In this document: positions 2,802 to 28,852 of the stretch, in pieces
Position numbering within the stretch: the stretch's first letter is position 1
Layout: each line of letters opens with the position of its first letter
The notes under the pieces: generated by a model
What the model was told of the DNA's origin: nothing
Database searches by the model: none
What the model saw: only the letters and a program-made list of their open reading frames with translations
Translations under genes and position numbers: made by a program
Source of the DNA: Escherichia phage tunzivis
Sequence record: MN850604.1
Direction: 5' to 3' (one strand)
Length of the DNA: 50,596 nucleotides

Positions 2802-3197
2802 TCATGTGATATTGAATTTACGGCGCAGTGCTTCAAGATCTTGTCTATTAGCTTTTGCCTGGAACAATTCATCATCGCCCATCTCCCCTATTCTAGCTAT
2901 ATCCCTGATCCAGTCGTTGCGCATACCATCCAGGCTATACAATTCGAATCCGAAAGGCCGCTTTGACGATCCTTTGGACCAGTATTTTCCGCAGACTCCA
3001 TCTATATAACCAGCCGTCATCATTCTTGCGCAAAATTCCTTAGATGCAAGGCTGGCGAACATTCGCGGCGTAAGTCCGGCGGCCCGTGCGAGCCGCTCAC
3101 ATTCTCTATGCTGATAGATAAATTTGGCTATGTGCTGCCTGTTAAACCAATCGTATGACTCACACCATTTATACAGATCAAGCAAAAACATAATCAT
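2802..3197 (-). CDS. hypothetical protein
   Basis: 131-aa ORF; start ATG overlaps stop of upstream gene 3194..4774 (ATGA coupling). Confidence 0.45.
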   Translation of the reverse strand: MIMFLLDLYKWCESYDWFNRQHIAKFIYQHRECERLARAAGLTPRMFASLASKEFCARMMTAGYIDGVCGKYWSKGSSKRPFGFELYSLDGMRNDWIRDIARIGEMGDDELFQAKANRQDLEALRRKFNIT

Positions 3198-4774
3198 CCC
3201 AGCAGTATTGGATTGACAAAAATAACACCATTAATCACACAAACATAATTTCTTTCTTCCAGCATTGGCAGTAAGTGCCCTTCTATCCTTTTCATTACGC
3301 CAGCCTGACCAACGAAAGGTTTTACCTTTCTCGCTGATTCGTACAGGGCGCGGATATTCAGAATCCCTTTATTAGCCTTGCCGTGCCTCGTGATCAATTC
3401 AATCAATTTACCCATTTCAGCATCATCACCAGCATAACCAGAAGCATTGGCGGCGCTAATGTATGTTTTGCTCAATTCCTGAAACATGATCAACGCCTCT
3501 TGCATTGTTTCCACGTCGATCTCTTTCGACTTCTGCGGGTATCCGGCAGGATTAAACCAGTTACGGATAACATGCAGGACGGAAGCAAGCCTGATCACCT
3601 GTTTATCCATTTTACCCAGCGCACCGCGTAACATTGTATGAGAATACTTTCCTCCGTCTGCAAGATGCGGTTCCATATCCTGGCGAGCAATGTTGAGCAC
3701 TCGCATAGCTGAACGGCTTATTTTCAGCGATATATTTGATTCGCTCATGATGTTATGCACCAATTGATAATATTGGGCTTTCAATTCAGAATCCACCGCC
3801 TCATAGGTAGAATCACCATTTTCATCAATGAATGAGCGACGGCCTAAGAATGATTCCTCTCGGACCAACAAAAAACGCTCACTAACACCGATGCCTCGCG
3901 ATCCAGCGTCCATGATTCCGCTTATCGTTTCATCCTGGGCTATGACGCTCATACATCCAAGCGCGCGAAAACTCATATTATTGTCAGCATTAGCACGGGC
4001 AATTGATACGTGACCATTATCCCACGCCTTAAGCACTAACTCACTGTTAGTCTTCCTTTCGCTATTTGCATAGGTCAAGCCTAACAGACTGTTAATACTT
4101 GTTGCTTCATCAGATATTACGGCAAAGTTACCTTGCTTGTTGTTGATTTTCGCCAAGCCTTCTGGAGTTGTATCTGAAACAGGAAAAGTTATATCACACA
4201 TTTTTTCCAGCTTTTCCTCCAGATCCTCTTTTTCCTGGTATAGAGATTCCATATCAGCGCCGGATCTTTCGCTTTTCATCTCCTTTGCAAGACCTGCCAG
4301 CTTTGCCTGTATTTTCTTTCTTTCCTTGCGGCGTTGCTCGTTGATCTTCTCAACTTCCGCAATCATCGGAGCAATAGCCATGCTGTTGATCGCAGATTTA
4401 CCAGTTGACGGCGGCTGGCTTGTAACGACGTAAAGCGCAGTCGGCTGATCGGTTCCGTGATAGTCAACCGTAAAGCGTCCAAGCATAGCGGCAGAAATGC
4501 AGCCGATAAAGTGCATGTAAGCCGATGATTCAGGGAATTGAACGGATCGCGCAATGCTGCGTGATAACTTGCCGACAACATCAATATCATTACCAAGAGA
4601 AATAACGGGGTAGCGATCGTGACCGCTATTCACATCCTTTACGTCGCCCCAAAAGCTGGACGACTGGCGATAGCCGTTAGCCTGAATTGATACGCGAACT
4701 GGCGAAAGGTTCTGGCTTTCAGCCATAGCGATTATTTGTTGTGGAGTTAATTTGTTCGTTTCTAATGAAAACAT
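3194..4774 (-). CDS. P-loop NTPase, putative replication-associated helicase-like protein (DUF3987-like)
   Basis: 526 aa; Walker A-like VVTSQPPSTGKSAINS; RBS AAGGAGAAG; motif-type promoter 53 bp upstream; family assignment is from memory. Confidence 0.45.
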   Translation of the reverse strand: MFSLETNKLTPQQIIAMAESQNLSPVRVSIQANGYRQSSSFWGDVKDVNSGHDRYPVISLGNDIDVVGKLSRSIARSVQFPESSAYMHFIGCISAAMLGRFTVDYHGTDQPTALYVVTSQPPSTGKSAINSMAIAPMIAEVEKINEQRRKERKKIQAKLAGLAKEMKSERSGADMESLYQEKEDLEEKLEKMCDITFPVSDTTPEGLAKINNKQGNFAVISDEATSINSLLGLTYANSERKTNSELVLKAWDNGHVSIARANADNNMSFRALGCMSVIAQDETISGIMDAGSRGIGVSERFLLVREESFLGRRSFIDENGDSTYEAVDSELKAQYYQLVHNIMSESNISLKISRSAMRVLNIARQDMEPHLADGGKYSHTMLRGALGKMDKQVIRLASVLHVIRNWFNPAGYPQKSKEIDVETMQEALIMFQELSKTYISAANASGYAGDDAEMGKLIELITRHGKANKGILNIRALYESARKVKPFVGQAGVMKRIEGHLLPMLEERNYVCVINGVIFVNPILLG

Positions 4775-5519: not shown

Positions 5520-6233
5520 TTTTGAGTTTGACTCAAAGACGGCGCGAGCAAATCCGCGCGGAGTGAGGGAGCGGATCATCTTTGTGCGCGATGACTTGCC
5601 GCCAGTTTTGGCCCAGCCTGGATTATCTTTGTCTTCCTCTTTCGGCAGGATTAAAGCGCGCGGAGGAATAACAAAGCCGTTGCCAGTCCAGAGGCACGTT
5701 TTCTTAAAATAGCGATCACGCGCCGGAATAATATCAGGGAAGTCGGGATGTTTATCATCTTCCGGCAGATAGCCAGCGTAATCGCACGGATGGAACGTAT
5801 AATCAGGCTTACGCCATAACGTTGACAACTTGCCAACCGGATTTTCGATCATGTAAGGAACACCGAAATAATCAGCTATATCAGCCGCGATTCTGCAAGT
5901 GTCGGCGGCCTCATCCTGGAACGATGGATTCTCAAGGCGTTTTTTGGCCCAATGGCGAGATCCGCTATTTGCAAGGTCGGTGCAAGGAGGGAACGCCATA
6001 ATAAAATCAGGATTGCCCCACTCATTATTGATTGCCTTAACATAAAAAGCATCATCAATCCAGACGTTAACGTATTCGATATTCTCATGCTGTATGCGCA
6101 CTGACTGGTAATCACCGTGATCGCCGCCGTCAGCATTAAAGCAAATGCACTTATAGCCATTATCAGCCCAATCTTTAACGGCTTTACCAGATCCATCAAA
6201 TAGGGAGAATATAAAACCTTTATACATCGTCAT
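5517..6233 (-). CDS. compact DNA (cytosine-5)-methyltransferase
   Basis: ORF 5517..6296; start placed at MTMYKG with GAGG RBS; C5-MTase motifs I (FSLFDGSG), IV (FPPCTDL) and VI (ENPVG) in canonical order; unusually short, no long target-recognition region. Confidence 0.6.
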   Translation of the reverse strand: MTMYKGFIFSLFDGSGKAVKDWADNGYKCICFNADGGDHGDYQSVRIQHENIEYVNVWIDDAFYVKAINNEWGNPDFIMAFPPCTDLANSGSRHWAKKRLENPSFQDEAADTCRIAADIADYFGVPYMIENPVGKLSTLWRKPDYTFHPCDYAGYLPEDDKHPDFPDIIPARDRYFKKTCLWTGNGFVIPPRALILPKEEDKDNPGWAKTGGKSSRTKMIRSLTPRGFARAVFESNSK

Positions 6234-17695: not shown

Positions 17696-18223
17696 ATGGC
17701 TAAAAACGTTGAGCCTGCTGTAAAGGCATTAAATTTCAAAGAGTTATATAATAAAACTTATGGCGATATTGTCACGCTAAACAACCGCCACAAGTACACG
17801 CCGGAACAGGTTTTTGATATGGCGATCCGCTATTTCACTTGGGCCGAAGAGAATCACATCCAGGCGGCTGAAACTGCTTCCTTTCAGGGTGACGTGTACG
17901 AGAGCAGAGTTTACAAGCCTCGCGTTTTCACGGTTAACGGATTCAGCTTGTATCTCGGCGTGACTGAGGCTGCCGTAAGCAAATGGCGTAAAGAGCCTGG
18001 ATTCTGCGATGTGATGGAGTTTGTTGATAAAGTAATTTACGAGCAAAAATTCCAGCTTGCGGCAAATAACATGATTAATGCTGGATTTATCGGTAAAGAG
18101 ATCGGCGTAGAGAAGCCAGCAACAGTGAGCGTTGAAGCTAGCGCGGCAGCTAATGCAAGCATTGACGCAGTAACTGCCGATGAGGTGAAAGAGGCTGTTA
18201 TTGATATTCTGGAGCAACTTTAA
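17696..18223 (+). CDS. terminase small subunit
   Basis: ORF 17654..18223; ATG at 17696 after AAAGGAGGA; immediately upstream of, and overlapping (TAATG), the large terminase. Confidence 0.6.
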   Translation: MAKNVEPAVKALNFKELYNKTYGDIVTLNNRHKYTPEQVFDMAIRYFTWAEENHIQAAETASFQGDVYESRVYKPRVFTVNGFSLYLGVTEAAVSKWRKEPGFCDVMEFVDKVIYEQKFQLAANNMINAGFIGKEIGVEKPATVSVEASAAANASIDAVTADEVKEAVIDILEQL

Positions 18224-19791
18224 TGATCATATGGGAAGATTTGACGGCGGCGCAAAAGCGAGCCATTAAAGAAATCAGTGAGCATTCATTCGAAAAGATG
18301 ATCAGAATCTGGTTTCAGTTATTGCAGGGGCAAAAATTCCAGAGCAACTGGCATTTTAGCTTATTGTGCAGTGAGGTAGAGAAGATCATCAATGGAGAGT
18401 CGCAGAATGTGATTTTCAACATTACGCCAGGTAGCGGTAAGACTGAGATTTTCTCGATCCACATGTCACCCTACGCGTCATTGAAAAGTCGGAAGGTGAG
18501 AAACCTTAACCTTTCGTTTAGTGATGGACTTGTCCAGCAAAACAGCAACAGGATAAAGGAGATTATCGGTTCTCCTGAGTGGCAAGAGCTATGGCCAGGA
18601 AAACTGGCAAAGGCGAGCGCAAAAGATCTCATAGTTACGGATGGCGGCAAGGTTAAATTGCAAGTTAACTCACGTTCTATTGGCGGACAGGTAACAGGTT
18701 TGCGTGGCGGCTATATGGATGATGGTTTTACTGGTATGCTGGTTCTGGACGATCCAGACAAGCCTGATGATATGCTTTCTAAGGTCAAGCGTGAGGCGAT
18801 CCACATGAGGTTAAAAAACACAGTGCGTTCTCGTCGAATGAAAGACACCACGCCAATTGTTATGGTGCAACAGCGACTACACGTTAATGATTCCACCTGG
18901 TTCATGCTTAATGGCGGGATGGGCGGTATTGAGTTTAAAGTTGTGAGCATTCCTGCGCTGGTTACGAAAGAATACCGCGAAACGCTTCCTGATTGGTTGA
19001 AGCCTGAATTTGATCGTGATGTGTTGTCAAGTAAGCCAGTGATGATAGATGGAGTTGCTCATTATTCATTTTGGCCTGCAAAGGAAAGCGCGGAGGAATT
19101 GCTTGCATTGCGCAATGCAGATCCTTACACGTTCGCCAGCCAATACCAACAACAACCCATCGCGCTTGGCGGCAACGTGTTTAAAACAGAGTGGTTCCAG
19201 TATTACGGCAGCGGCGAAAAATGCGCACTTCCTAAACCGGATCGCTTTGAATACACATTTATTACTGGAGATACAGCACAGAAGGCCGGAGAGCTTAACG
19301 ACTATTCAGTTTTTTGTTATTGGGGGATGTATAAAAATCGCGTTTACTTCATTGATGGCATTCGCGGCAAGTGGGAAGCGCCAGATCTTGAATTAAATTT
19401 TATTGCCTTCGTTAATCAGTGCTGGAAGCGCAATAAGGAGTGTGGCAGCTTGCGACGTATTCACATTGAGGATAAGGCCAGCGGCACGGGTTTGATTCAG
19501 GGGGCCAAAAAGAAGATCCCGATTGATATAAATCCCGTTCAGCGAAGCAATGACAAGGTAACGCGAGCAATGGACGCCGCGCCAGTAATGAGGGCAGGAC
19601 GTGTGGCACTGCCAGAAAGTCATCCCATGTTACCTGAGATACTGGCAGAGGTTGCAGCGTTCACTTTTGACGATTCTCATCCCCATGATGATATTGTCGA
19701 TAATATAGTTGATGCTGTTAACGTCGAAATGAACTTGGCAGATGATCCGGTAGCAAGGATGAAAAAGCTGGCTGGTCTACGCAATAAATAG
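18223..19791 (+). CDS. terminase large subunit
   Basis: 522 aa; P-loop-like TPGSGKTE in N-terminal ATPase half, acidic residues in C-terminal nuclease half; position TerS-TerL-portal. Confidence 0.8.
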   Translation: MIIWEDLTAAQKRAIKEISEHSFEKMIRIWFQLLQGQKFQSNWHFSLLCSEVEKIINGESQNVIFNITPGSGKTEIFSIHMSPYASLKSRKVRNLNLSFSDGLVQQNSNRIKEIIGSPEWQELWPGKLAKASAKDLIVTDGGKVKLQVNSRSIGGQVTGLRGGYMDDGFTGMLVLDDPDKPDDMLSKVKREAIHMRLKNTVRSRRMKDTTPIVMVQQRLHVNDSTWFMLNGGMGGIEFKVVSIPALVTKEYRETLPDWLKPEFDRDVLSSKPVMIDGVAHYSFWPAKESAEELLALRNADPYTFASQYQQQPIALGGNVFKTEWFQYYGSGEKCALPKPDRFEYTFITGDTAQKAGELNDYSVFCYWGMYKNRVYFIDGIRGKWEAPDLELNFIAFVNQCWKRNKECGSLRRIHIEDKASGTGLIQGAKKKIPIDINPVQRSNDKVTRAMDAAPVMRAGRVALPESHPMLPEILAEVAAFTFDDSHPHDDIVDNIVDAVNVEMNLADDPVARMKKLAGLRNK

Positions 19792-19818: not shown

Positions 19819-19846
19819 AAGGCTGGATTTTTCCAGCCTTTTTTAT
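19819..19846 (+). terminator. rho-independent terminator after terminase
   Basis: AAGGCTGGA-ttttt-CCAGCCTT then TTTTTATT. Confidence 0.65.
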
Positions 19847-19861
19847 TATGGAGATTTGACG

Positions 19862-21154
19862 ATGAGCGAAAAAACAAGGCTAGTTAAGGCCGATGGATAC
19901 AACGAGATTTTCAAGGGTAGTAAGGGCAATGGGCGTGTAGAGTTGCCTTTCTTTATGCAGGGGTTCGAATACACCACGCACGCTGATTTTTACATTCGTG
20001 ACGGCCTAGCAAAACGAATCATCGACGTTGTTCCAGAAGAAATGGTGACGCCTGGATTTAATATTGATGGCGTGGAAGATGAGGAAAGTTTTAGATCTTT
20101 GTGGGATGAGAAGCGACTAAACGATAAAATCATTGATGCGCTTTGCTGGTCGCGTCTTTTTGGTGGCGCTGCAATCGTGGCAATCGTCCAGGATGGCAGG
20201 TCGTTAAAGTCACCTGTAGCGCCTGGTGCAATCCTTGAAGATGTTCGCGTTTACGATCGCTTTCAGGTTAGGGTAGAAAAGCGCGAAACTAATCCACGCA
20301 AGGTAAGATATGGTGAGCCATTAATTTACACCATTTCACCTGGTGCCGACTTGCCAGAATACCAGGTTCACTATTCGCGAGTCTGTATTATCGACGGTGA
20401 GCGGCTACCAAATCAGCGGCGTCAATCAAATGATGGGTGGGGTGAGTCGATCCTGAATAAGAGACTTGTTGAGGCTATTTGTGATTATAACTACTGCGAA
20501 AACTTAGCAACTCAATTGTTGCGACGTAAGCAACAGGCGGTATGGAAAGTTAAAGGTCTTGCTGATCTTTGTGATGATGATGATGGTGTTAGTGCCGCAC
20601 GTTTGCGACTTGCTCAAGTTGATGATGAGGGTGGCGTAGGCCGTGCGATCGGCATTGATGCGGAAGATGAGGAATATGATGTTTTAAATTCTGATATTTC
20701 TGCCGTCGATTCGTTCTTGGAAAAGAAGATGGATCGCATTGTATCTCTTTCCGGCATCCATGAAATCATCCTCAAAAACAAGAACGTTGGCGGTGTTAGC
20801 GCGAGCCAAAACACGGCGCTTGAAACCTTCTACAAGCTGATCGACCGAAAGCGAAAGGAAGAATACAAACCAATCCTTGAATTTCTGATCCCGTTCCTTA
20901 TTCAAGAGGAAGAATGGAGCATTCAGTTTGCGCCGTTAAGCGTTCCAAGCGAAAAGGACCAGGCCGAAATCTTGAACAAGAACATTGATTCTTTGAGTAA
21001 GGCTATTGACGGTCAATTCATGGATGCAGAAGAGGCGCGCGACACATTGCGAGCCATTGCGCCTAACGTTAAACTAAAAGACGGCAATGACATTAAATTA
21101 CCTGAGCAAGACGTAGAGCCAGAGCCAGGAACAACAGAGGGTAGCAATCAATGA
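19862..21154 (+). CDS. portal protein
   Basis: ORF 19856..21154 (TTG); ATG at 19862 with GGAG RBS; about 430 aa; acidic C-terminus; synteny after terminase. Confidence 0.7.
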   Translation: MSEKTRLVKADGYNEIFKGSKGNGRVELPFFMQGFEYTTHADFYIRDGLAKRIIDVVPEEMVTPGFNIDGVEDEESFRSLWDEKRLNDKIIDALCWSRLFGGAAIVAIVQDGRSLKSPVAPGAILEDVRVYDRFQVRVEKRETNPRKVRYGEPLIYTISPGADLPEYQVHYSRVCIIDGERLPNQRRQSNDGWGESILNKRLVEAICDYNYCENLATQLLRRKQQAVWKVKGLADLCDDDDGVSAARLRLAQVDDEGGVGRAIGIDAEDEEYDVLNSDISAVDSFLEKKMDRIVSLSGIHEIILKNKNVGGVSASQNTALETFYKLIDRKRKEEYKPILEFLIPFLIQEEEWSIQFAPLSVPSEKDQAEILNKNIDSLSKAIDGQFMDAEEARDTLRAIAPNVKLKDGNDIKLPEQDVEPEPGTTEGSNQ

Positions 21155-21906
21155 TAGTGAAAGGCGTCGTTAAACAATGGCGCTTTCCTGAAGCAAGCGA
21201 GCGGCAATTGCGCCGCTCAATTCAGGAGGCGATAAGGGATCTTGTTGTGCTGATGCGCAGCAAAACAAAGGAAATGAAATTTGACGCGGACACCGAAGAA
21301 ATCAACGCCGCAGAGGATGAGATTAGTAGCTTCGCGTTAAAGCTAATAGCTGGCATCGCCGCATCACTTCCGGCTATCGGTCTTGCTGTTTATAAATTCA
21401 ACGCGAAGCAATTTATTAACGTAGCCAAATCAACGGGAGGCAAGTCAAATTCAGCCGTTATCATCCTTATGGCTATTGGGGCCAATGCGAATGAGAGTTG
21501 GTATAGGACGCTATACGGTCAATGGCATGACATGACGATCGCGTCTCTTCAAAAGCTATTTGGAAACATCGTGTCTGACTGGTCAACCAATATTAGATTG
21601 GCAAACTTTCGCGGAATGAGAGATAGCCAGGTTAATGAATTGGCTGGTAAGAGGTTCGCAGTGTATAGCTCTTGGGGTAAGACAAGGGCGGAAAACATCA
21701 TAGGCGCTTGGAATAGTAGACTCATGCGCCAGCGTCTTTATGATTCAAAAGTAACTCATTATTTTTGGCATGGTATGCTTGATGACAGAGAGCGATTGCA
21801 GCATGTACAATGGGAAGGTAAGCGCATTGCGCTAGATTCTGAACATGATTTTCCTGGTGAGCCTTTCGGTTGTCGTTGTTGGGCCATACCAGATTGGAAC
21901 AGTTAA
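21151..21906 (+). CDS. head morphogenesis protein (Mu F / SPP1 gp7-like)
   Basis: 251 aa; ATGA overlap with portal; conserved position. Confidence 0.55.
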   Translation: MIVKGVVKQWRFPEASERQLRRSIQEAIRDLVVLMRSKTKEMKFDADTEEINAAEDEISSFALKLIAGIAASLPAIGLAVYKFNAKQFINVAKSTGGKSNSAVIILMAIGANANESWYRTLYGQWHDMTIASLQKLFGNIVSDWSTNIRLANFRGMRDSQVNELAGKRFAVYSSWGKTRAENIIGAWNSRLMRQRLYDSKVTHYFWHGMLDDRERLQHVQWEGKRIALDSEHDFPGEPFGCRCWAIPDWNS

Positions 21907-21916
21907 GAGGTATTAA

Positions 21917-23032
21917 ATGAAGGCAAAACAAAGATTTGATAGCGCCAAAGTAAAGGCGCACTTTGATGATAACGGGTTTTTAGTTGATCGCCCTATCGTG
22001 GCGCGAATTGGTTTACAAGTCTATCAGACTCCTTTCGGTGAGCGCCGAGAATTTCGCCCTGCGTCAGAAGTATTCAAGGCCGACTCGCTCGCCACCTTTG
22101 CAGGGAAGCCGGTCACGGTTGGTCACGTCACGGTAACGCCAGAAAACGCCGAAAAGGTTGTAGTTGGTTCTTGTGCTGGCGCTGGTGTGCCGAACGGGAT
22201 CGGCGTAGAGGTTCCGTTAAGCATTTACTCAAAACGAGCAATCGAAAGCGCAAAGAAGCGAGACACGGCGGAAATTTCAGTTGGTTATACATCGGTTGAT
22301 ATTGATAAACCAGGCTGGGGCAATAATAAAACTGGTGAGTACGTTTTCGATGAGGACGTTAGCGAAGACTGGAAACCTGATTCTCCTGATTGGGTTAAGT
22401 TTGATGCAATCCAGACTGAAATCAAGGTAAACCACATCGCGTTAGTTTTCCGAGGTCGAGCTGGCATTGCAAAATTAAACCTTGATAGCCAGCAAGATTT
22501 TCCGTATAGTGACGACGTTATTAACAACAAAGAGGATCAAATCATGACTGTAAAAATTAAACTGGATGGCGCTGTAGAGTTTGACGTGCCGAAAGCGGTT
22601 GCGGATCACATTGAATCACTGAAAGCTGATACCAAAGCGCAGAAAGAAAAGGCTGACAGCCTGGAAGCTGAGCGAGACGCACTGCAAACCAAAGTAGATG
22701 GCATTCAGGATCAGATTGATGCCGCAGTCAAGAAGGCCAAAGAAGATGCCGAGCAATATGCTCAATTAGTGGCAGACGCTAAAGAGTTAGGCATCAAGTG
22801 CGACGGCCTGGATGCGAAAGCAATCAAGGTTGCATACATCAAGGAAGTTATGGGCAATGACGTTTCTGATAAAACTGATGCCTATATCGAAACAGCTTTC
22901 GACATCGCCAAAAACTCTGATAAAATGGCGGCGCAGCGTAAGAGCATTAAAGGTGACTCTTTCGCGAATGAAAAGCAGGATGACGCAGGTTCTAAGCTGA
23001 ATCCTAACGCTCGTTTTGAGAAACTGAAATAA
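21917..23032 (+). CDS. scaffolding protein (possibly with N-terminal protease-like domain)
   Basis: 371 aa; C-terminal half strongly coiled-coil (KADTKAQKEKADSLEAERDALQTKVDGIQDQIDAAVKKAKEDAEQ); lies between MuF and capsid genes. Confidence 0.5.
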   Translation: MKAKQRFDSAKVKAHFDDNGFLVDRPIVARIGLQVYQTPFGERREFRPASEVFKADSLATFAGKPVTVGHVTVTPENAEKVVVGSCAGAGVPNGIGVEVPLSIYSKRAIESAKKRDTAEISVGYTSVDIDKPGWGNNKTGEYVFDEDVSEDWKPDSPDWVKFDAIQTEIKVNHIALVFRGRAGIAKLNLDSQQDFPYSDDVINNKEDQIMTVKIKLDGAVEFDVPKAVADHIESLKADTKAQKEKADSLEAERDALQTKVDGIQDQIDAAVKKAKEDAEQYAQLVADAKELGIKCDGLDAKAIKVAYIKEVMGNDVSDKTDAYIETAFDIAKNSDKMAAQRKSIKGDSFANEKQDDAGSKLNPNARFEKLK

Positions 23033-23044
23033 GGAGTAATTAAA

Positions 23045-23554
23045 ATGGCTAAAATTGGAGCAAGTTATTTTGACACTATGGCGCGTGCGCTTCCTGGTCA
23101 GGTATCCGATACTTCGGCATATAACATCGACGGCGCTTGTGTTCTTGACAAGGAAGACGGCATCCCAATCCTGGTTGGCGTGGCTGTTAAGCTAAAAGGC
23201 GTTGACTCAATGGGTAATAAGCTGATCGACGCTATTTCTGGTAGTGGTGATGTTCCTTATGGCGTTGGCATCCGTTCGCACTTTCAAACTACGGCTGATA
23301 ATGGACGAATGGTTTATGAGGCTGGCGGCGGAATCAACGTTATGACAGAGGGACGCGTTTGGATGGTTGGCGATGATACCGACAAGAGCAAAAAACCATC
23401 GTATCGTGAGCCTGTAAAAATTGATGAAAACACTGGCAAGGTGAAAAGTGCTGGCACTATCAATACCAACTGGATTTACACGGGAGATAAAACCACATTT
23501 GGAACTGGCGATGATGTGTTGACTTTGTTTGAAGTTCAGGTCTTCCCAAGCTAA
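23045..23554 (+). CDS. capsid decoration-like protein, paralog 1
   Basis: 169 aa; shares pattern YNIDG...TEGRVWM...W-YTGD with 23605..24393; followed by terminator. Confidence 0.45.
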   Translation: MAKIGASYFDTMARALPGQVSDTSAYNIDGACVLDKEDGIPILVGVAVKLKGVDSMGNKLIDAISGSGDVPYGVGIRSHFQTTADNGRMVYEAGGGINVMTEGRVWMVGDDTDKSKKPSYREPVKIDENTGKVKSAGTINTNWIYTGDKTTFGTGDDVLTLFEVQVFPS

Positions 23555-23558
23555 AATT

Positions 23559-23587
23559 AAGGCGCTCGCTTGAGCGCCTTTTTTATT
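23559..23587 (+). terminator. rho-independent terminator
   Basis: GGCGCTC-gcttg-AGCGCC then TTTTTTATT. Confidence 0.7.
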
Positions 23588-23604
23588 ATGTAAGGAGAAA
23601 TGAA

Positions 23605-24393
23605 ATGGCTAAAGATTATTCATCTGTTATGGGTCTTTCTTGCCCTGGTTGTTTGGTTGATTCTACTCGCTACAATATTGATGGAACTGGTGTTTGCGGA
23701 TCTGAGTCGATCATTGCTGGCAAGGTTGTTTTCTTCAAAGAGAGAGTAGAAGGTTATAACATATTTGTTGATCAAAAAGAGGATAATGCAGTAGTTGCTG
23801 GTATTGCGCTAAGGAGCAACATAACAACAACAGTTAACGAGGATGGCGGGTACTCTGACTGCAAAGAAGGTGATCCTATTAGCGTTGTAACTCGTGGTCG
23901 CGTGTGGGTGTTAACTGAAAGTATTGATGAAGCTCCTTCACACGGTGAAAAAGTATATGTTAATAACGATGGATTTGTTGGTAAGTCCGGCGACCAGGTT
24001 GTTGATGGGTGGATTTTTACAGGTGATTTTATGAAATTTGACAGTAGCATTAACATTGTAGGGATTCATATCAAACCTGTAATAGTACATGTTCAAAAGT
24101 TAACAGCGGCTATTATTGAAGATGTTGAAGGTAACAAGCCTGATGGAAACAGACCAAACAATGAGCCTGTTAATCTCAAGGTTACTGTAGAGCCTGAATA
24201 TGCAACAGATAAAACTGGAACATGGGAGATTTCATTAGGAGGAGAATACGCATCAATTTCGCCAAGTGGTGACACGGCGCAAGTAACGCCATCAAGCAAT
24301 GGTGATGTATATGTAAACTGGGTGGCAAATGACGGATCTGGTGTATCTGACACATTTATCATCAACTTTGTAGATCCAGAGCCTGGCCCTTAA
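23605..24393 (+). CDS. capsid decoration-like protein, paralog 2, with C-terminal Ig-like domain
   Basis: 262 aa; N-terminal about 150 aa paralogous to 23045..23554 (YNIDG...TRGRVWV...WIFTGD); C-terminal beta-rich segment (NLKVTVEPEYATDKTGTWEISLGGEYASISPSGDTAQVTPSSNGDVYVNWV) resembles bacterial Ig-like domains. Confidence 0.5.
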   Translation: MAKDYSSVMGLSCPGCLVDSTRYNIDGTGVCGSESIIAGKVVFFKERVEGYNIFVDQKEDNAVVAGIALRSNITTTVNEDGGYSDCKEGDPISVVTRGRVWVLTESIDEAPSHGEKVYVNNDGFVGKSGDQVVDGWIFTGDFMKFDSSINIVGIHIKPVIVHVQKLTAAIIEDVEGNKPDGNRPNNEPVNLKVTVEPEYATDKTGTWEISLGGEYASISPSGDTAQVTPSSNGDVYVNWVANDGSGVSDTFIINFVDPEPGP

Positions 24394-24411
24394 CATAAAA
24401 ACATCTTGCAC

Positions 24412-24429
24412 GTTTAACAAAAAGTGCTA
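24412..24429 (-). promoter_or_regulatory. inverted conserved motif copy in front of major capsid gene
   Basis: GTTTAACAAAAAGTGCTA on + strand, followed by hairpin/T-run and RBS GGAGG; no class-F -10 on either strand. Confidence 0.45.
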
Positions 24430-24436
24430 TCATCTA

Positions 24437-24461
24437 GGCCGTTACATTTAACGGCCTTTTA
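24437..24461 (+). terminator. hairpin with short T-run upstream of capsid gene
   Basis: GGCCGTTA-cattt-AACGGCC then TTTTAT. Confidence 0.45.
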
Positions 24462-24474
24462 TGGAGGAAACAAA

Positions 24475-25446
24475 ATGGCTAAAAAATATGATGAACTAGA
24501 TGCTACGATTGTAGCAAATCATTTACAGGTTCAGGGCGTTAAGGGTGATGCTTCTGATATGGGTATTTGGACCGCTCAAGAGCTACACAAGATCCGCTCT
24601 ACCGCATACGAGAAAGAGTATCCGGCAGGTTCCGCACTTCGCGTATTCCCTGTAACAAACGAGCTTTCTGATACTGATAAGACTTTTGAGTATCAGACTT
24701 TTGATAAGGTTGGCTACGCGAAAATTATCGCCGACTACACCGACGATCTGCCGACCGTGGACGCGCTGATGACTTCTGAATTTGGCAAGGTGTTCCGCCT
24801 GGGTAACGCTTTTCTGATCTCCATTGATGAGATTAAAGCAGGTCAGCGAACTGGCAAGAGCCTGTCAACTCGCAAGGCTAACGCTGCGCAAAATGCGCAT
24901 GATCAGTTGATTAACTTCCTGGTGTTCAAAGGTTCCAAGCCTCATAAGATCGTTTCCGTTTTCGATCACCCTAACCTTACGAAAATTGTTTCTAAAGGAT
25001 GGATGAGCCAGGATGGAAACACCAAGTTCCCTGATGTGGCAAGCGATGAACTGGAGGCTGCAATCGAGACTATCGAGGAAGTAACAAAAGGTCAGCACCG
25101 CGCGACTAACATCCTGATCCCGCCGTCCATGCGTAAAGTCTTGACGGTTCGAATGGAAAATACCACTGAAAGTTATCTTGAATACTTCCAGAAGCAAAAC
25201 GGCGGAATCACTATCGACTCTATCGCAGAGCTTGAGGATATTGACGGCAAAGGTACGAAAGGTTGCTTGGTTTACGAAAAAGATCCAATGAACATGAGCA
25301 TTGAGATTCCAGAAGCGTTTAACATGCTTCCGGCGCAGCCAAAAGACCTTCATTTCAAGGTTCCTTGCACTTCCAAGTGTACTGGCCTTACGATTTACCG
25401 TCCGTTTACGATGGTGCTTATTACTGGCTTGAAAAAGTCAGTTTAA
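24475..25446 (+). CDS. major capsid protein
   Basis: ORF 24424..25446; ATG at 24475 after GGAGGAAACAAA; about 320 aa; followed by strong terminator. Confidence 0.65.
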   Translation: MAKKYDELDATIVANHLQVQGVKGDASDMGIWTAQELHKIRSTAYEKEYPAGSALRVFPVTNELSDTDKTFEYQTFDKVGYAKIIADYTDDLPTVDALMTSEFGKVFRLGNAFLISIDEIKAGQRTGKSLSTRKANAAQNAHDQLINFLVFKGSKPHKIVSVFDHPNLTKIVSKGWMSQDGNTKFPDVASDELEAAIETIEEVTKGQHRATNILIPPSMRKVLTVRMENTTESYLEYFQKQNGGITIDSIAELEDIDGKGTKGCLVYEKDPMNMSIEIPEAFNMLPAQPKDLHFKVPCTSKCTGLTIYRPFTMVLITGLKKSV

Positions 25447-25456
25447 TTAGATAACA

Positions 25457-25490
25457 TGGGGAGCCTTAAGGGTTCCCCCTTTTTTTATTT
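25457..25490 (+). terminator. rho-independent terminator after major capsid gene
   Basis: GGGGAGCC..GGTTCCCC then TTTTTTTATTT. Confidence 0.7.
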
Positions 25491-25504: not shown

Positions 25505-25771
25505 ATGAGCAAAACTTTAAAACTTAAAGTAACTGGCGTTTGCATGATTATTATGGACGGTAAGCGTTATCACCATGGTGATGAGATTGAAATTGAATCT
25601 GATCGTATTAATGATTCCGCAATTGAATACCTGATCGCTCGCGGCGATGTGGAAGTTAAAGACAATTCCGAAATTAACGAGCAAATCAAGGAGAAAGCGG
25701 AGAAGAAGCGCAAAAAAGATCCTACAGAGGGCAAGAGCCGCAAAGAGCTAGAGGATGGCGGCGAATATTAA
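25505..25771 (+). CDS. hypothetical head-associated protein
   Basis: 88 aa; Lys/Glu-rich C-terminus; between capsid and connector genes. Confidence 0.4.
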
Positions 25772-28100: not shown

Positions 28101-28124
28101 AAGGGGCGTTGCGCCCCTTTTTTC
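28101..28124. terminator. terminator after major tail gene (possibly bidirectional)
   Basis: AAGGGGCG-ttgc-GCCCCTT then TTTTT; A-rich on 5-prime side. Confidence 0.65.
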
Positions 28125-28514: not shown

Positions 28515-28831
28515 AGCGGGCGGTTTACCTGTTTTACCTCAAGCCGCCAACTGACGCACAATTAGAGGCCGTCGGCCTATCCCGTTCAGACTACGAAGGG
28601 GAGGATCCGCCGGAGGTAATTTTTGATGAATCAATGTTTCAATCTTGGGATCTATTTTGCGCCATGCAGACGCAATGGAGATCGACTAGCGGCAGTGTGT
28701 ATGGGTTCGACTATAACGTTTTGCCTATGCTTTTTGACATTTACAAGATTGAGGATCGGGAGATGGCGCTAAATGATTTGCGCATCATGGAACAAAAGGC
28801 GCTAGAAATGATTCATTCAAACAAAACATAA
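28197..28831 (+). CDS. tail assembly chaperone GT (-1 programmed frameshift product)
   Basis: -1 frame stays open from 28511 to 28831 (the track ORF 28634..28831 is its distal part); lambda G/GT-like arrangement. Confidence 0.55.
28505..28511 (+). other. -1 programmed ribosomal frameshift slippery site A_AAA_AAC (G to GT)
   Basis: heptamer lies 1-2 codons before the G stop; -1 frame open for a further 107 codons. Confidence 0.6.
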
Positions 28832-28852
28832 GCGCCGAGAGGCGCTTTTTTA
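28831..28852 (+). terminator. rho-independent terminator after GT
   Basis: AGCGCC-gaga-GGCGCT then TTTTTT. Confidence 0.6.

Follow-up and report, generated by a model that had tools for sequence, protein, structure and literature searches.

A gene pair in front of the capsid gene

The 50,596-nucleotide (nt) record MN850604.1 of Escherichia phage tunzivis, the whole of which is called the window here and to which all positions refer, carries two tandem genes just upstream of the major capsid gene. The products of gene 1 and gene 2 belong to a family of phage capsid cement proteins, and that of gene 2 also bears an immunoglobulin (Ig)-like domain. Comparison with phage T1 suggests that the two are components of a T1-type cement system, gene 1 encoding the bulk subunit and gene 2 a minor one. 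The 3.6 kb around the pair have an identity of 99.9% with Escherichia phage Tuinin and of 98-99.7% with other Warwickvirus phages, and on sequence grounds the phage can be placed in Warwickvirus (family Drexlerviridae, subfamily Tempevirinae). The elements of the locus are as follows:

21917..23032, plus strand: upstream neighbour resembling a head maturation protease (DUF2213, E 7e-25; PHROG 530, E 7e-109)
23045..23554, plus strand: gene 1, putative bulk cement protein of 169 amino acids (aa); PF22758; homolog of T1 gp49 and TLS HtjA
23559..23586, plus strand: predicted intrinsic terminator (hairpin 23559-23580), stem AAGGCGCTC/GAGCGCCTT, loop GCTT, then a T-tract
23605..24393, plus strand: gene 2, putative minor cement paralog with an Ig-like domain, 262 aa; PF22758 and Big_2; counterpart of T1 gp48 and FCWL1 gp29
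23770..24393, plus strand: variable swapped cassette covering the distal three-quarters of gene 2, recognised by a drop in identity against phage tuinn and by allele counts
24097..24372, plus strand: Ig-like (Big_2) domain of gene 2, aa ~165-256, from Pfam, AlphaFold2 and Foldseek
24406..24433, plus strand: promoter-like element TTGCAC, 16 nt, (TGc)TATCAT, recognised by conservation; the only full match in the window
24436..24457, plus strand: second hairpin, AGGCCGTTA-CATT-TAACGGCCT, followed by TTTATGG and then by the Shine-Dalgarno sequence GGAGG of the capsid gene
24475..25446, plus strand: major capsid protein of 323 aa, HK97 fold (PF09950, E 3e-53)

Both open reading frames (ORFs) are present on the plus strand as initially annotated, and their products are indeed paralogous, with 31% identity over 170 columns (BLASTP, E 1e-15). 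The motifs quoted as shared are found in both: AYNIDG, TEGRVWM and WIYTGD in gene 1 correspond to RYNIDG, TRGRVWV and WIFTGD in gene 2. Both proteins match Phage_cement (PF22758, gathering cut-off 27 bits), gene 1 with 85.4 bits (E 5.6e-24) and gene 2 with 78.1 bits (E 9.7e-22). Pfam describes this family as structural cement protein (E217 gp24/Pam3 gp6), E217 being a Pseudomonas phage and Pam3 a cyanophage. Both also score above the cut-off for PF23982 (XM1_gp53), named after a minor capsid protein of Vibrio phage XM1. It is with these structural cement families, and not with a non-structural one, that the shared core aligns. Phage_cement_2 (PF09956) gives a sub-threshold match (16.9 bits, cut-off 24), and PHROG 122 (“head decoration”) matches gene 2 weakly. 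The lambda gpD family is absent from the Pfam matches of the two proteins up to an E-value of 1; the two proteins resemble lambda gpD in fold and function without being members of its family.

The closest solved structures are those of T1 and FCWL1. Among Protein Data Bank (PDB) sequences, gene 1 matches a 158-aa “decoration protein / cement protein II” in entries 9KMG, 9KMH and 9KZJ (E 1.9e-37). Gene 2 matches a 255-aa “BIG2 domain-containing protein” (9KZJ_H, E 3.2e-22) over aa 10-252, which covers both domains, and additionally “decoration protein gp29” of 9KMH (FCWL1). Gene 1 groups with T1 gp49, to which it is 48% identical, and its N-terminal arm MAKIGASYFDTMARALPG lines up with T1 MAQINASYQRDMAIALPG; gene 2 is 32% identical to T1 gp48. 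The capsid protein encoded at 24475..25446 matches 9KMG_A and 9KZJ_A at E ~1e-156 (1.5e-156 to 9KMG_A), is 76% identical to T1 gp47, and is, judging from these matches, the lattice bound by both cement proteins. The initial annotation had set the pair between scaffold and major capsid genes: it was right on the capsid side, but “scaffold” fits only in part, the upstream product being a head maturation protease by PHROG, with a DUF2213 domain at its N-terminus and only sub-threshold coiled-coil Pfam matches in its C-terminal half (aa ~220-300).

For gene 1 the fold is taken from the solved chain that its sequence matches; for gene 2 it comes from an AlphaFold2 model built from 24 sequences, with a predicted local distance difference test score (pLDDT) of 88.9. 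In the model, aa ~24-156 form a beta-rich core, and aa ~168-256 fold as an all-beta domain apart from it. In Foldseek searches, the core is closest to the FCWL1/T1 cement chains 9KMG_a/b, 9KMH_ak and 9KZJ_H/I, with target-normalised template modelling (TM) scores of 0.77-0.81 and E ~1e-9. Remoter matches of the model are XM1 7KMX_a and Pam3 8HDT_G; these chains of ~160 residues align with the core only and not with the Ig-like domain, at 13-19% identity in the structural alignment.

A C-terminal Ig-like module of about 100 aa, as initially described, is borne out by Big_2 (PF02368), which matches aa 189-248 with 25.3 bits against a cut-off of 22.8, a small margin. The model has beta strands at aa 168-256 with pLDDT above 90, and Foldseek relates them to the Ig-like domain of lambda gpV (2L04, TM 0.72 to target) and to that of T5 pb6, as well as to the Big_2-CBM56 domains 7QUZ/7R3T (root-mean-square deviation 2.0-2.6 A over 91-101 columns, 27% identity). 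The C-terminal part of gene 2 also matches PHROGs that group Ig-bearing structural proteins. As a single uninterrupted ORF, gene 2 needs no programmed frameshift to attach the Ig-like domain, a possibility that was considered. Its protein contains Cys86 (TGC, position 23861), replaced by Tyr (TAC) in KMB46, ityhuna and tuinn, and further cysteines in a CPGC motif (aa 13-16) and at Cys31. Two minus-strand ORFs within gene 2 (23772..24056 and 24093..24365) are taken as incidental.

A probable cement system of the T1 type

The cryo-electron microscopy (cryo-EM) structure of T1 (PDB 9KZJ) shows a T=7 shell of 415 gp47 copies (Chen et al., Viruses 2025, PMC11945409). It is decorated at threefold and quasi-threefold sites by 80 gp49 homotrimers and 60 gp48(gp49)2 heterotrimers, and according to the figure legend a hexon is surrounded by four homotrimers and two heterotrimers (PMC11945409). 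Both gp49 (158 aa) and gp48 (255 aa, with a BIG2 domain) have the beta-tulip fold, which is also that of lambda gpD and TW1 gp56. The N-terminus of gp49 is buried in the capsid's inner surface, while gp48 is on the outside only. The C-terminal part of gp48 appears as weak protruding density modelled with AlphaFold3, and the authors suggest that it may help in adsorption (PMC11945409). For FCWL1 the comparison rests on its PDB entries 9KMG and 9KMH; the portal-vertex entry 9KMH contains five chains of the Ig-bearing gp29. The GenBank record of Rtp describes T1 gp48 and gp49 as abundant capsid-related proteins.

Tunzivis is like T1 and FCWL1 in its family, Drexlerviridae, in the Pfam families of the proteins, in the two-domain build of the second protein, and in the longer N-terminal arm of the first. 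The N-terminus of gene 2 is 3 aa shorter than that of gene 1, and across the compared phages it is always 3-4 aa shorter. T1 and tunzivis also have the same order of elements: protease, cement, terminator, cement with Ig-like domain, promoter/hairpin, capsid gene, terminator. The re-annotated T1 GenBank record reads accordingly: capsid decoration protein, rho-independent terminator, IgG-domain-containing decoration protein, promoter, terminator, major capsid protein. The two phages differ in subfamily, T1 belonging to Tunavirinae and tunzivis to Tempevirinae (Warwickvirus), and in the identity of the pair, 31% in tunzivis and 43% between gp49 and gp48. In tunzivis, as in all Warwickvirus, the cement system is predicted from its genes; in T1 and FCWL1 it is known from solved structures.

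The locus was compared in nine other Drexlerviridae, Rtp included. Two tandem cement paralogs between the protease and capsid genes are also present in T1 and seven other Drexlerviridae. The second paralog has an Ig-like domain and 255-268 aa in T1, BananaBelafonte, Klebsiella K50, Salmonella PHB07 and Warwickvirus; it has 144-153 aa and no such domain in TLS, slyngel and Samwise; and it is absent from Rtp, which has a single cement gene (2498-2977 of its locus). Since the paralog is maintained without the domain in TLS, slyngel and Samwise, its core would do a structural job, with the Ig-like domain as an add-on. Between genera, Rtp left out, gene 1 proteins are 47-78% identical and gene 2 cores 23-66%.

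We consider that genes 1 and 2 together encode a capsid cement system of the T1 type, one component each, with a probability of about 0.8. The tunzivis locus and its relatives directly provide the homology, the domains present, the predicted fold, the synteny, the conservation of the terminator and of the promoter-like element, and the cassette exchange; what is drawn from T1/FCWL1 or from sequence is the stoichiometry, the sites of the heterotrimers, the role as adhesin and the transcription logic. After the HK97-fold T=7 shell has expanded, beta-tulip trimers would bind at 140 threefold and quasi-threefold sites and clamp the adjoining capsomers. Gene 1 would be the bulk subunit, with ~360 copies, forming homotrimers and inserting its N-terminal arm toward the inner surface of the shell. 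Gene 2 would be a specialised paralog of ~60 copies, taking one subunit place in each of 60 penton-adjacent trimers and carrying its Big_2 Ig-like domain clear of the capsid by means of a linker. The two proteins would thus not decorate separately; by analogy with T1, the Ig-bearing paralog would be one subunit of mixed trimers, with a plain to Ig-bearing ratio of 360:60. The terminator after gene 1 would let only read-through transcripts reach gene 2, which fits a 6:1 need, and the conserved promoter would restart transcription for the capsid gene. The Ig-like domain would be optional for particle formation and passed between phages as a cassette. The initial proposal of two cement or decoration proteins, one with a surface Ig-like domain, agrees by analogy with the cryo-EM structure of the homologous and syntenic T1 pair, whose members are present in virions. 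This two-paralog reading is correct, and it is already known for T1 from the published structure.

The position of the heterotrimers can be approached by geometry. Of the 140 trimer sites of a T=7 shell, 20 lie on icosahedral threefold axes, 60 where three hexons meet and 60 where a penton meets two hexons, and each hexon touches 1, 3 and 2 of these, respectively. Because four homotrimers and two heterotrimers per T1 hexon, and five gp29 chains at the FCWL1 portal vertex, fit this arrangement, we infer from chain and trimer counts that the heterotrimers occupy the 60 penton-adjacent sites and that gene 2 is vertex-adapted.

A two-gene system of this kind differs from the beta-tulip decoration trimers of lambda gpD, TW1 gp56 and P74-26 gp87, which are encoded by single genes and form homotrimers only. 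The N-terminal arm of the T1 cement reaches the inner surface of the capsid, a feature that its authors contrast with lambda (PMC11945409). T4 Hoc and T5 pb10 are monomers attached at hexon centres by unrelated capsid-binding domains, whereas here the Ig-like domain is fused to a trimer-forming cement subunit. Hoc and pb10 are dispensable, and a weak-adhesion role has been proposed for them. With T4 Hoc, T5 pb10 and the tail tube proteins lambda gpV and T5 pb6, gene 2 would share an exposed and dispensable Ig-like domain on the virion surface. The Shigella siphophage Sf11 was set aside as a close relative: it has a single decoration protein, gp40 (155 aa), which forms homotrimers and is most like TW1 gp56.

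Several observations weigh against the T1-type reading, and some of them would suit a different arrangement, in which gene 2 is an independent decoration, either Hoc/pb10-like or a homotrimer at sites of its own, without mixed trimers, the Tempevirinae paralog having arisen or diverged separately. Copy numbers and sites are wholly transferred from T1 and FCWL1, and the penton-adjacent site is not stated in the text of the T1 paper (PMC11945409). The identity of gene 2 to T1 gp48 is low, and in a distance tree gp48 lies closer to the clade of gene 1 than to that of gene 2 in Tempevirinae; its core is 43% identical to T1 gp49 and 40% identical to tunzivis gene 1 over 103 aa, against 32% for gene 2. 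Strict one-to-one orthology of gene 2 and gp48 is therefore uncertain, and gene conversion between the T1 paralogs or separate duplications in the two subfamilies are possible. The much faster evolution of gene-2 cores than of gene 1 also speaks for independence. Architecture and synteny nevertheless argue for a common origin of gene 2 and gp48, and independent decoration appears unlikely: the two-domain build, the synteny and the Ig motifs ATDKTGxW and WxANDxS are held in common with T1 gp48 and FCWL1 gp29, the core is a cement beta-tulip and not the anchoring domain of Hoc or pb10, the motifs shared with gene 1 (YNIDG, GRVW, W-x-TGD) are kept, and a capsid lattice so close to that of T1 puts the same sites on offer. 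It is highly improbable that the genes are non-structural or have some other function, as implied by the GenBank names zonula occludens toxin, SbcC-like scaffolding protein, preneck appendage protein HtjA and capsid fiber protein. They occur only as product labels that close relatives carry in their records; none of the names is backed by a Pfam, PHROG or PDB match, the solved T1 and FCWL1 structures put the homologs on the capsid surface as cement, and the re-annotated T1 and BASEL phage records call them capsid decoration proteins. A literature search for “HtjA” returned no functional evidence behind the name, one phage-collection paper being the sole match above noise.

Exchange and possible loss of the Ig-like domain

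The distal part of gene 2 varies independently of its surroundings. Compared with phage tuinn, the DNA is 99-100% identical from 20900 to ~23700 and again from ~24480. Across 23700-24385 the identity falls stepwise to 42-50%, and it is 42-75% over the cassette as a whole (tuinn locus 2870-3488). The first 56 residues of the two gene 2 proteins are identical, and their overall identity is 66%. The proximal 725 nt (gene 1 to 23769) are covered over at least 80% of their length by 44 phage records, with 84-99.9% identity among the matches listed, while the distal 624 nt are found in 11 phage records, all with at least 98% identity and none intermediate. Orkinos, brachmannus and JLBYU26 are 94-95% identical proximally and 98-99% distally; Tunus (99.4%) and tuinn (99.3%) are nearly identical proximally, and neither has a detectable distal match. 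Proximal and distal similarities are incongruent in the way that cassette exchange would produce, and the pattern marks distal gene 2 as a discrete allele that is transferred horizontally.

The domain also appears to have been lost naturally. In phage ityhuna (MN850582), a 4-bp tandem duplication of TGAA at position 24194 causes a frameshift inside the Ig-like domain, which is why its gene 2 is annotated with 198 aa. Ityhuna is viable and was isolated on E. coli MG1655, and it amounts to a natural knock-out of the exposed Ig-like domain. On the other side, the frameshift could in principle be an assembly error. The domain is predicted, by analogy with T1, to be exposed at the capsid surface, and it most likely serves as an accessory adhesin that binds weakly to surface glycans or to polymers in the environment; a ligand of the Ig-like domain is not known for any Drexlerviridae phage, which again counts on the other side.

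Putative transcription signals and meaning of the locus

The initial annotation gave each gene its own terminator, and this holds for the first hairpin better than for the second. The first has a 9-bp stem with 6 G-C pairs followed by TTTTATTATG, folds with -15.4 kcal/mol, and is called by a terminator scan that finds 20 sites in the window against 11.2 expected. In all eight relatives with the pair, the spacer between genes 1 and 2 contains a hairpin of -13 to -17 kcal/mol with a T-rich tail, the stem sequences differing, and Rtp has a like hairpin and T-rich tail after its single cement gene. The first hairpin is thus predicted to be a canonical intrinsic terminator. The late genes of T1 have been described as modules bounded by terminators, with promoters inside (PMC11447400). 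An Rfam search of 22800-24700 on both strands found no known RNA family, only two sub-threshold matches on the hairpins, to RyhB (20.6 bits against 55) and mmgR (19.2 against 41), which are taken as chance.

Genes 1 and 2 have the same strong AAGGAG ribosome-binding site, so any ratio between them would be set before translation. No promoter of its own is recognisable for gene 2; a candidate at 23529-23557 (9/12 match), which abuts the first terminator, was dropped as it had no supporting evidence. Terminator read-through would be the simplest route to a smaller amount of the minor subunit. Here too there are points on the other side: terminator efficiency and promoter activity are predicted from sequence alone, and the limit of 60 copies could come from assembly, through the number of available sites, without any contribution from transcription.

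Between gene 2 and the capsid gene, the promoter-like element at 24406..24433 is nearly invariant in nine Drexlerviridae, even though the adjoining gene 2 is so diverged between genera. Its T1 version, TTGACG-N16-TATTAT, is annotated as a promoter in the T1 record. The spacer and -10 of the element form one copy of a 21-nt Drexlerviridae repeat. The second hairpin starts 2 nt after this -10, and at 0-2 nt in seven of the nine lineages, with differing sequence; for TLS and PHB07, the best fold extends upstream to include the -10 hexamer. The hairpin is stable (-13.0 kcal/mol, z = -3.8; none of 200 shuffles folds as well). Its tail has 4 T in 8 nt here and 0-6 in 8 across relatives, with 0-1 in TLS, PHB07 and Samwise. 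Since a transcript starting at the usual distance from the -10 would begin within the 5' arm, the hairpin could stop upstream transcripts and spare the capsid transcript.

It is conceivable, if rather doubtful, that both hairpins are simply terminators, expression stepping down gene by gene, 24436-24457 ending the gene-2 transcripts and the promoter-like match being non-functional. The stability of the second hairpin and the TTTTAT after it would suit this, as would the longer T-tracts of tuinn, T1 and K50 and the rho-independent terminator that the T1 record has at the corresponding position. The promoter itself offers openings: its -35 matches at only 3 of 6 positions, for which reason the consensus sigma-70 scan did not flag 24406-24433, and the general sigma-70 scan, at 19 sites against 18.8 expected, is at chance level and supports no promoter, all of which also weighs on the T1-type reading. 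But the terminator scan did not call the hairpin at 24436-24457, hardly any T-tract follows it in BananaBelafonte (TTTAAGG) or Samwise (TAAGG), and in Samwise and slyngel its stem reaches about -6 kcal/mol, which is weak. The 28-nt element upstream is nearly invariant across subfamilies next to highly diverged coding sequence, and a transcript starting from an element placed so close to the hairpin would have an incomplete 5' arm or none. Dependence of the capsid gene, with ~415 copies needed, on read-through of two terminators is unlikely, and Rtp, with its single cement gene, has terminator, TTGCGT-N16-TATAAT and capsid gene in this order. The second hairpin is accordingly doubtful as a terminator of gene 2, with no scan call, a short T-tract and a promoter-like element adjoining it; it may be a terminator of low strength, or else an element at the 5' end of the capsid mRNA. 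The graded high expression initially read from the two hairpins is solid for the first only, as the second starts so soon after the -10 hexamer. The terminator and promoter readings may also be compatible, the hairpin stopping upstream transcripts and promoter-initiated ones escaping.

The repeat to which the element belongs occurs throughout the window. Its core TTTAACAAAAAGTGC, usually followed by TATTTA, is found 11 times without a mismatch; when up to 3 mismatches are allowed the count is 19, and 3.8 would be expected by chance. On the plus strand copies lie at 2667, 4829, 5503, 7421, 8726, 24413, 28165 and 38939, and on the minus strand at 5708, 10105, 10568, 11785, 12952, 15587, 19805, 44913, 46475, 48964 and 50035. 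The copies at 24413, 28165, 44913 and 46475 are in the sense direction just upstream of a start codon and resemble extended -10 promoters; those at 2667, 5503 and 10105 are antisense to adjoining ORFs, and a small hairpin (ttatgccagg...cctggc) stands in front of some copies. In reverse complement, the repeat is the 21-nt direct repeat of phage TLS, reported there without function (PMC11447400).

The flanking genes and signals are those of a late region:

18223-19791, plus strand: large terminase
19856-21154, plus strand: portal
21151-21906, plus strand: Mu F-like head morphogenesis protein
25458..25478, plus strand: predicted terminator after the capsid gene, called by the scan, 9 pairs then CTTTTTTTAT; kept in relatives
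25505-25771: DUF7444 protein of 88 aa (PHROG 2716), directly 3' of the capsid gene; counterpart of T1 gp46

The DUF7444 protein follows the capsid gene in all relatives compared, and after its gene come connector and tail genes. Strong terminator-like hairpins lie between late genes, after those for terminase (19819-19840), capsid (25458-25478), major tail (28101-28119) and tail chaperone (28830-28847). The tail of the hairpin at 19819, TTTTATTATG, is identical to that of the gene 1 terminator.

New here, modest and all computational, are the cassette exchange, the natural truncation, the Ig-less second paralogs and the promoter/hairpin geometry. A more specific proposal, which we advance only tentatively, is that the Ig-bearing subunit is vertex-specific and that its exposed part is traded among nearly identical Warwickvirus phages as an adaptive adhesin cassette, that the terminator sets the ratio at ~6:1, and that the hairpin over the capsid promoter acts as a one-way insulator, ending transcripts from upstream but not those from the promoter, in which its 5' arm is missing. 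If the cassette part of this is true, diversifying selection shapes a capsid-borne determinant of the places to which the phage adheres, such as host surface glycans, mucus or particles.

For annotation, the dozens of relatives' records in GenBank that misname the pair can be corrected, as homology to the T1 and FCWL1 structures allows the names capsid cement protein and Ig-domain cement protein. These records also use “hypothetical” and the misleading “beta-galactosidase”, and a neighbouring gene, called head-closure or connector in other records, is labelled “ribonucleoside-triphosphate reductase” in some. By analogy with T1, an exposed C-terminus at ~60 defined sites would offer a display position on T1-like capsids for engineering. 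Finally, the function of the capsid Ig-like domain can now be approached through allele swaps in near-isogenic backgrounds, through the ityhuna truncation, and through the genera whose second paralog has no Ig-like domain.

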